A stretch of 64,000 nt of DNA from an uncultured Candidatus Rokubacteria bacterium (lineage in GTDB: Bacteria; Methylomirabilota; Methylomirabilia; Rokubacteriales; DASRDR01): assembly GCA_963708025.1 (NCBI GenBank), contig CAVPSB010000016.1:32001-96000 (forward strand), written 5' to 3'. The position numbers were made by a program, and so were the translations under genes. Shown here one piece after another: positions 28,570-28,948 of this stretch (position 1 is the first letter of the stretch; each line of letters begins with the position of its first letter). The notes under the pieces are model-generated. The model saw only the letters and a list, made by a program, of their open reading frames with translations, did no database searches and was not told the origin of the DNA.

Positions 28570-28644
28570 AAAAAAAACGGCCGGCGTGAGCCAACGTCCG
28601 GACCCCCGGGAGGGCTGGGGGCACGAACGGCCTCACGCCGGCCG
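28570..28644 (-). terminator. intrinsic terminator (long hairpin plus U8)
   Basis: CGGCCGGCGTGAG...CTCACGCCGGCCG followed by T8 (A8 at 28570-28577 on the plus strand). Confidence 0.7.
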
Positions 28645-28755
28645 ATCATCGACCGGTGTCACTTCATGTTCGGCCCCGCCCCTCGGGAGGGCTGAGGGAG
28701 CGGAGGCACCGGCCGATCCCTATTCGGTTGTCATCGCGCCAGCTTCGCGCGACGC
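28570..28755 (-). ncRNA. candidate sigma54-dependent small RNA with two AGCCCUCCC loops
   Basis: Sigma54 promoter upstream; three stem-loops; identical loop motifs at 28608-28616 and 28685-28693; terminal hairpin plus U8. Confidence 0.65.
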
Positions 28756-28765
28756 TATCCGAGGG

Positions 28766-28781
28766 TGCAAGCCGGCTGCCA
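28766..28781 (-). promoter_or_regulatory. sigma54 (-24/-12) promoter
   Basis: TGGCAGCCGGCTTGCA versus consensus TGGCACGN4TTGCW, with correct GG-N10-GC spacing. Confidence 0.7.
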
Positions 28782-28948
28782 CCGAGGAACCGCACGCCTG
28801 GCGGCCCTCTCAGCGCCGATGCCCGGCATCACGTCTCCAAACCTGACGTCCGCTCGCTGCCGGGACCGTCACCGAACAGACAGGCCGGACTCCGCGCGAT
28901 GGCCCAAATTGACGTCGCGTCCGGGCGCGTGCTCTAATCGGACCCCTG

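Follow-up and report, generated by a model that had tools for sequence, protein, structure and literature searches.

The stretch analysed here, which we call the window, comprises 64,000 nucleotides of a Methylomirabilota ('Rokubacteria') genome, positions 32,001 to 96,000 of contig CAVPSB010000016.1 (GenBank assembly GCA_963708025.1; G000 below). A 490-bp spacer separates ccmF from a membrane-protein gene of the LPG_synthase_TM family, and the minus strand of this spacer very probably holds a discrete small RNA (sRNA) gene of about 185 nt, running from 28755 to about 28570 and opposite in orientation to both neighbours. The predicted RNA lies behind a sigma-54-type promoter, displays one and the same nine-nucleotide loop with an anti-Shine-Dalgarno (anti-SD) core on two different hairpins, and ends in an intrinsic terminator. 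The sRNA is previously undescribed; it is a new family inside a known class, with no new kind of mechanism. The features of the gene, followed by those of its surroundings, are listed below.

28781-28766, minus strand: sigma-54-type -24/-12 promoter, TGGCAG-N5-TTGCA = TGGCAGCCGGCTTGCA, from the sequence; predicts a +1 near G28755
28754-28732, minus strand: 5' hairpin of 8 bp with a 7-nt loop, from the computed fold
28731-28721, minus strand: single-stranded linker ACAACCGAAUA (ACAAYYGAAUA in the family), from alignment and unpaired probability
28717-28648, minus strand: hairpin 2, whose long stem has an internal bulge and carries loop 1 as its cap, from the fold
28693-28685, minus strand: loop 1, AGCCCUCCC, with the CCUCC anti-SD core, from sequence and fold
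28644-28578, minus strand: hairpin 3, the terminator hairpin, with loop 2 as its cap, from the fold
28616-28608, minus strand: loop 2, AGCCCUCCC, the same as loop 1, from sequence and fold
28577-28570, minus strand: U8 tract of the intrinsic terminator, from the sequence
26459-28459, plus strand: ccmF (Pfam CcmF_C, 9.8e-72; Cytochrom_C_asm, 5.2e-31), convergent with the sRNA gene
28949-29917, plus strand: LPG_synthase_TM-family membrane-protein gene (Pfam PF03706, 8.2e-44), divergent from the sRNA gene
28909-28938, plus strand: TTGACG-N18-TCTAAT, candidate sigma-70-type promoter of the membrane-protein gene, from conservation
28460-28548, strand not assigned: dispersed repeat of about 90 bp, a C-rich/G-rich inverted repeat (CCCCCCUCCCCCC...GGGGGAGGGGGGG), from blastn coverage and fold

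Fold and boundaries of the gene

The computed fold of a 194-nt stretch consists of exactly the three hairpins listed, with a minimum free energy of -105.2 kcal/mol compared with -85.3 ± 4.4 kcal/mol for 200 shuffled sequences, none of which was as low (z = -4.55). Hairpin 2 has the stem AUCGGCCGGUG/CACCGGUCGAU, one G-U pair included, and the cap CCCUC-AGCCCUCCC-GAGGG; hairpin 3 has the stem CGGCCGGCGUGAG/CUCACGCCGGCCG and the cap CCCCC-AGCCCUCCC-GGGGG. The exact string AGCCCTCCC occurs 97 times on the two strands of the 8.17-Mb genome, and only the two copies at the sRNA locus are flanked by six consecutive pairs, the runners-up having five and four. Counting the C in the -12 GC as position -12 puts the start of the RNA at G28755 and its length at about 183-186 nt.

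A scan for terminator-like sites gave calls on the minus strand alone, and the plus-strand version of the terminator hairpin has no T-run after it. The sRNA is not a leader or riboswitch of any gene, because the next gene past the terminator, ccmF, runs on the opposite strand. No start codon within the sRNA is conserved among the four homologues described below, the ATG at 28649 in G000 being ATT, ATC and GTT in the other three; open frames on the RNA strand begin at differing places across the four sequences and have no stop within the RNA. Across the 64-kb window, Rfam 15 gave no match at gathering score. When the threshold was relaxed to E<=10 for 28400-29000, there were 16 matches, all far under the gathering score and mostly on the dispersed repeat, with only miRNA-type noise on the RNA body.

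When the spacer was compared with its own genome (8.17 Mb, 71% G+C) by blastn, 446 alignments were obtained at E<=1e-3. Since coverage by these alignments is 1 across the whole of 28578-28948, the sRNA is single-copy and is not a dispersed repeat of the repetitive extragenic palindrome or miniature inverted-repeat transposable element kind. Over 28460-28548 coverage is about 350-400, with a maximum of 404, which defines the dispersed repeat that begins 22 nt past the sRNA terminator. The repeat and the sRNA are not one unit, because the homologue in genome G006, the only one compared (by eye), has no repeat at that place.

An earlier sequence-only reading of this DNA had described most of this anatomy. 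Every string and coordinate that it gave for the promoter, the hairpins, the loops, the U8 tract and two motifs upstream matches the sequence base for base. Its proposal of an independent, lineage-specific sRNA gene of about 186 nt on the minus strand is upheld, with a length of about 185 nt, by a single-copy gene found in four of the family's 21 genomes. The intrinsic terminator, made up of hairpin 3 and U8 on the minus strand only, likewise stands, as do its claims that the locus has no credible open reading frame (the four homologues share no start codon), belongs to no Rfam family already described (the scan was without a match) and is no multi-copy mobile repeat (blastn coverage of 1 over 28578-28948).

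Homologues and synteny

Homologues were sought by blastn over 41 related genomes and with R1, a covariance model derived from the four sequences obtained first. Full-length homologues were found in exactly four genomes, with R1 scores of 190.4 (G000), 192.2 (G006), 198.3 (G005) and 168.4 bits (G002). These represent four of the 21 genomes of the family and four of its seven genera, one per genus, with none among the 15 genomes of genus g5. In a sample of 151 genomes from the order, seven had an R1 match at E<=0.01, and those besides the four were all discarded; in a sample of 151 genomes from the phylum, five had an R1 match and the real ones were the same four, absence in these samples meaning 'not found in those searched', as only a small share of the first-look candidates was scored. 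One genome in these samples, G038, is flagged as unpublished, and no claim depends on it. The discarded R1 matches (G044, G112, G130 and G005:C148) were read as coding sequence, and a blastn match at G007:C63 was set aside as a false positive after inspection.

The site and orientation, ccmF followed by the sRNA and the membrane gene, are the same in all four genomes, with only the membrane-gene side confirmed in G005. At 15 syntenic loci of family genomes without the sRNA, R1 run with filters off reached at best 9.3 bits (E 0.13). In the family genomes that lack the sRNA, ccmF and the membrane gene are adjacent and separated by a short spacer; in one of them, G013 of genus g5, the ccmF stop is directly followed by the TTGACG-N17-TCTAAT of the neighbouring gene. 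Because these sRNA-free relatives keep the two genes adjacent, the sRNA gene looks like an innovation of a sub-clade, or one lost elsewhere.

Scanning public contigs for the double loop gave at least 119 stretches, and of the 80 that were scored with R1 only two, L083 and L087, are real. Both are metagenome-assembled genomes of Methylomirabilota/'Rokuibacteriota'; since their R1 scores are equal to those of G005 and G002, they are probably these same genomes and provide no independent evidence. Four stretches of metagenome contigs combined GAATA with the double loop, and none matched R1. Counts of CCCTCCC-N16-46-T6 in 61 genomes of the phylum were similar to those in a reversed control. A search of the 21 family genomes for TGGCA-N6-TTGC followed by CCCTCCC yielded six extra matches without a hairpin-plus-T-run; these appeared by eye to be coding and were rejected.

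Conservation, covariation and strand

Counted from promoter through T-run, the gene spans 190-212 nt in the four homologues (190 in G002, 209-212 in the others). The TGGCA and TTGCA cores, the linker, both nine-nucleotide loops and the terminator stem with its T-run (T6-T9 in the homologues) are invariant or nearly so in all four, and the promoter spacer and the stems vary. All eight loops are identical (AGCCCUCCC), with unpaired probabilities of 0.89-0.92 for loop 1 and 0.90-0.92 for loop 2 across the four homologues. The pair of identical anti-SD loops on different stems, a central claim of the sequence-only reading, has thus proved to be invariant, accessible (about 0.9 unpaired) and carried on stems that covary. 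The linker ACAAYYGAAUA is nearly invariant and has a mean unpaired probability of 0.79-0.97 in the four homologues; it is possibly a second seed, a protein site or an RNase site. By eye, G006 and G005 have a hairpin at the place of the 5' hairpin, and this element appears dispensable because the region is missing in G002.

Standard pairs make up 96.5% of the 172 cells in the RNAalifold structure. Changes on both sides were observed in 11 of 43 pairs, compared with 5.0 ± 1.6 in column shuffles, and none of 500 shuffles reached 11; these numbers are indicative and not a formal test, given that n = 4 related sequences and that kinship inflates shuffle statistics. When the 3' partners were slid by 1-3 columns, only 0-1 pairs with double changes were left. 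Seven pairs changed on both sides lie in helices 2-4 and three in helix 5, where 100% of cells are paired. Among the paired cells there are 16 with G-U, a pairing that the plus strand would turn into an A·C mismatch. Because these pairs and the T-run terminator work in one direction only, the RNA is assigned to the minus strand.

Sigma-54 control and the upstream region

Judged from the conserved motif, transcription of the sRNA is probably sigma-54-dependent. The sigma-54-type promoter put forward by the sequence-only reading is conserved in all four homologues, with invariant TGGCA and TTGCA and a variable spacer. The motif TGGCA-N6-TTGCA occurs 18 times in the genome, compared with about 5.8 expected from composition and 4 in a reversed control. 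Since several of these sites precede genes with a Shine-Dalgarno (SD) sequence and an ATG, the organism uses the canonical -24/-12 motif, and the 18 sites in G000 provide a starting set for its sigma-54 regulon. One rpoN (a Sigma54_DBD match) is present in each of the four sRNA genomes. G000 also has 40 Sigma54_activat matches above the Pfam cut-off, of which about 24 span the greater part of the domain and certain others represent fragments of a single gene, so that both rpoN and the enhancer-binding proteins anticipated from the sequence are present in the genome.

Two motifs upstream of the promoter had been read as enhancer sites. The distal one (28904-28916) is not supported, as it overlaps TTGACG-N18-TCTAAT, a pair also found, with a 17-nt spacing, in an sRNA-free genome. 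The occurrence of this pair in G013 makes it more likely to be the membrane gene's own promoter than an enhancer site, and GTCAAT and GATTA-A blocks are kept upstream of the membrane gene in all four homologues. TTGACG-N18-TCTAAT went uncalled in a strict sigma-70 scan, owing to the C at position 2 of the -10 hexamer. With TCTAAT ending 10 nt before the ATG at 28949, the arrangement suggests that the membrane gene would give a near-leaderless mRNA. Nor is the proximal motif (28837-28850) supported as an enhancer site: all that the homologues share of it is a GACGTY core, some 70 nt ahead of the -24 element. The 11-mers common to the regions upstream of 86 other TGGCA-N6-TTGC sites were GC-rich noise only.

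Apart from the sRNA promoter, GTGGCAC-N5-GTTGCAC sites are found before SD+ATG genes in G000, for example at C34:183374 (minus strand) and C16:115420-118877 (minus strand). One such gene starts MKKIEAIIKP and presumably encodes a PII/GlnB-like protein. Three more canonical sigma-54 sites lie within 3.5 kb on the contig that includes the window, but outside the window itself.

Presence in RNA libraries

Part of the spacer is contained in 20 of the 24 sequencing runs listed, and six of these 20 are RNA libraries. Four RNA runs from four studies were aligned on 28300-29100 at >=85% likeness. From run X7 comes a contig of 162 nt that matches 28575-28736 without a difference and does not extend beyond it. 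Runs X16, X17 and X19 gave contigs of 209, 203 and 242 nt on 28548-28712 or 28559-28729, which belong to one variant lineage since the same five differences occur in all three. Three of these differences lie in stems, each a C-to-U change opposite G on the minus-strand RNA, which likewise speaks for that strand, and two are unpaired. Sequence of the sRNA body is therefore present in RNA libraries as short pieces. Assembled contigs speak for presence of the sequence only, not for strand, ends or abundance, and DNA is possible in RNA libraries. The ends of the transcript are not fixed by these contigs, because the three variant contigs run 7-56 nt beyond their matching parts with sequence unlike the window. 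No contig falls on 28759-28947 in the four RNA runs, a lack of cover that is no evidence.

Other C-rich elements and the dispersed repeat

Two weaker R1 matches, at 32.1 and 39.8 bits, lie at L020 ~1480-1600 (minus strand; G000:C18:89738-89851) and L018 ~1560-1650 (plus strand; G002:C89:2141-2285). Each consists of a single long terminator hairpin just past unrelated genes, with ACCCCUCCC or AGCCCUCCC as its cap, a T-rich run behind it and no good -24/-12 motif visible. They may be further C-rich-loop sRNAs or RNAs derived from 3' untranslated regions. In three genomes of family f11, genus g59 (G171, G172 and G173), two C-rich stretches with a stem and T6 are nearly unchanged (CCCTCCCCGGTCC...GGACCGGGGGCATTTTTT and CCCTCCCCCCTCCCCGCCAC...TGTTTTTT), and these may be other small RNAs or terminators.

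Shorter matches to the repeat of about 90 bp occur in nine further family genomes (G001-G004, G006, G008, G010, G016 and G017), and one copy also follows the candidate C-rich-loop hairpin on G000:C18. In the repeat core (28503-28541), RNA runs X7, X16 and X19 gave G-rich contigs of 31 letters whose word depths reach thousands and which are probably low-complexity or poly-G artefacts or many repeat copies summed.

Discussion

On balance, and by a modest preference, we read this RNA as an Hfq-independent, trans-acting sRNA whose main mechanism would be anti-SD pairing leading to translational repression. An enhancer-binding protein would be needed because the promoter is of the sigma-54 type, and such a protein, answering some signal, would activate transcription, which hairpin 3 and U8 would end. 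Two different hairpins would then present unpaired AGCCCUCCC, that is, the CCUCC core of the 16S anti-SD extended with C, and these loops would pair with G-rich ribosome-binding sites (GGGAGGG, ideally GGGAGGGCU) and block binding of the 30S subunit. The two loops would work redundantly or on two sites simultaneously. The 3' tail of the 16S rRNA is GGATCACCTCCTTTCT, and the CCUCC core is common to tail and loops. The duplex between the loop and GGGAGGGCU is calculated at -18.6 kcal/mol, compared with -10.3 kcal/mol for the 16S tail on the same site, and that between the loop and GGGAGGA at -11.8 kcal/mol. Seeds so rich in G and C would permit action without Hfq. Although hfq had been expected in the genome, searches gave no Hfq match in the four sRNA genomes and no CsrA match in G000, with search controls as expected in both cases.

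Several observations weigh against this reading, in addition to the reservations given above for the covariation statistics and the RNA-library contigs. No enhancer site could be defined upstream of the sRNA promoter. No target was found in a search confined to the perfect complement of the 9-mer. Counts of the 9-mer with ATG or GTG within 1-12 nt showed no enrichment over a reversed control (21 against 18 in G002, 20 against 15 in G005, 27 against 19 in G006), the start-codon finder being crude in that many internal codons were counted and no gene calling was used. No orthologous gene has the 9-mer at its start in more than one genome, and the 19 candidate genes are without a common function (Fae, a DAO oxidoreductase, a T2SSE ATPase, FtsW, SPFH, LptE, FadL and others). 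All nine loop bases are invariant, including the 5' AG, which goes beyond the needs of general SD pairing and fits a protein site too. The conserved linker, finally, could be the actual seed.

The only protein family common between genomes in the target search is that of the NtrC-type activators; this was rejected as a coincidence, as in G002 and G005 the 9-mer corresponds to the receiver-domain codons E-G-Y. In G006, GGGAGGGCU ends 1 nt before the ATG of an NtrC-type activator gene (L238 103-1503, minus strand; REC, Sigma54_activat and HTH_8 domains). Feedback of the sRNA on this activator is thus conceivable in G006. The gene was not among the 9-mer matches in the other three genomes, where its orthologues themselves were not examined. 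The local target that had been suggested at mlaD, GGAGGGC at 54334-54340 before the ATG at 54346, is not supported, being a 7-nt match of a kind common in the genome.

Other explanations concern what the RNA itself would bind. The twin loops might serve as a decoy for an RNA-binding protein, possibly a dimer, with AGCCCUCCC as its recognition site, which would be titrated upon sigma-54 activation; we regard this explanation as unlikely. It would account for nine loop bases, AG included, that are invariant in eight of eight loops while the stems covary, for two identical sites on a single RNA and for the lack of a conserved mRNA target; yet the known partner proteins were not found (CsrA in G000, Hfq in the four genomes), no candidate protein is encoded next to the sRNA gene, and the CCUCC core of the loops is exactly what SD pairing predicts. 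The loops are also without GGA, the motif typical of CsrA sites. A sigma-54-gated global brake, whereby two rigid, extended anti-SD copies would outcompete the 16S tail at GGGAGGG-type sites, or else a decoy titrating a protein that reads the AGCCCUCCC loops, is similarly an outside possibility, by which the RNA would be more than a common riboregulator of one target, and owes its standing to the nine invariant loop bases and to the lack of a conserved single target. It is rather doubtful that the linker ACAAYYGAAUA is the main seed, with the C-rich loops serving stability, a second target class or kissing contacts. Many sRNA seeds lie near the 5' end, as this nearly invariant and largely unpaired (0.79-0.97) stretch does, but such a role leaves unexplained why the same 9-mer sits on two different stems.

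Two further explanations place the function in the locus, or nowhere. Local action on ccmF or the LPG_synthase_TM gene through transcriptional interference, a shared regulatory region or termination might be suspected from the strict synteny with both genes in all four genomes and from the divergent arrangement, about 130 bp apart, of the sRNA promoter and the neighbour's candidate promoter. However, the transcript overlaps neither neighbour, there is no plus-strand T-run after the terminator hairpin, and in relatives both genes are neighbours across a short spacer that lacks the sRNA; the RNA itself seems to be what functions, given its invariant loops and covarying stems, and local action is very unlikely. 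Most improbable of all is a non-functional structured insertion or a mobile-element remnant beside the dispersed repeat. The presence of the sRNA in only 4 of 21 family genomes, its appearance of having been inserted between ccmF and the neighbour's promoter, and the repeat of some 350-400 copies abutting it in G000 would fit such an origin, but the sRNA body is single-copy and the G006 homologue has no repeat at that position, and the compensatory changes, invariant loops, conserved promoter and terminator and RNA-library contigs argue for selection on a transcript. The anti-SD sRNA thus stays our preferred reading.

The Methylomirabilota ('Rokubacteria') are abundant soil bacteria and to our knowledge have no cultured representative. 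A literature search on Rokubacteria and small RNA returned no sRNA of the phylum, and among the matches listed for sigma54, sRNA and anti-Shine-Dalgarno none concerns this phylum, supplements being outside the coverage of both searches. The sRNA gives a point of entry to post-transcriptional control in this uncultured phylum and is testable in a heterologous host. It can also be traced in metatranscriptomes, because RNA libraries from soil and other metagenome samples contain its sequence.

Among known systems, the sigma-54-dependent sRNAs Qrr, GlmY/GlmZ, CrcZ and NrsZ depend on Hfq or other partner proteins. As in these, the sRNA gene described here lies directly behind a -24/-12 promoter, and its output would be gated by an enhancer-binding protein; they differ in being proteobacterial, in showing no homology to this sRNA by Rfam, and in that neither Hfq nor CsrA was found here. 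GlmY and GlmZ are treated in PMC3045617. The RsaE/RoxS family of the Firmicutes offers a second parallel, in the form of C-rich unpaired motifs that bind SD sequences. Such sRNAs act largely without Hfq. In RsaE a UCCC motif binds SD sequences and inhibits initiation (PMC9266662). Our sRNA differs in its lack of an Rfam match, its promoter type, its phylum and its longer, exactly duplicated motif.

The closest parallel is with the cuckoo sRNAs (alpha-r14/NfeR1, CcsR/RSs0680) of the Alphaproteobacteria. These have two to four hairpins, each with an identical, ultraconserved CCUCCUCCC anti-SD motif on variable stems, and the three such motifs of NfeR1 silence mRNAs by redundant occlusion of ribosome-binding sites, that of ntrB among them (PMC4615179, PMC10746234). 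Adjacent hairpins that present one identical C/U-rich anti-SD loop on differing stems are what the two systems share. In contrast, the loop here is AGCCCUCCC in eight of eight cases instead of CCUCCUCCC, and no Rfam 15 model matches the sRNA, a comparison made with Rfam as a whole and not with a named cuckoo accession. The members reported from the cuckoo screen are in alphaproteobacteria only, whereas this sRNA belongs to the Methylomirabilota. Its promoter is of the sigma-54 type, whereas the NfeR1 promoter is reported to be without a sigma-54 signature and RSs0680 to use RpoHI/HII; RSs0680a is described as binding Hfq, and no Hfq was found in the four sRNA genomes. Because loop motif, Rfam result, phylum, promoter type and Hfq all differ, the resemblance to cuckoo reflects convergence and not membership. 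What we describe is apparently an independent invention of a design in which several hairpins carry the same anti-SD motif, here coupled to sigma-54 control, with searches for Hfq and CsrA in its genomes finding neither.

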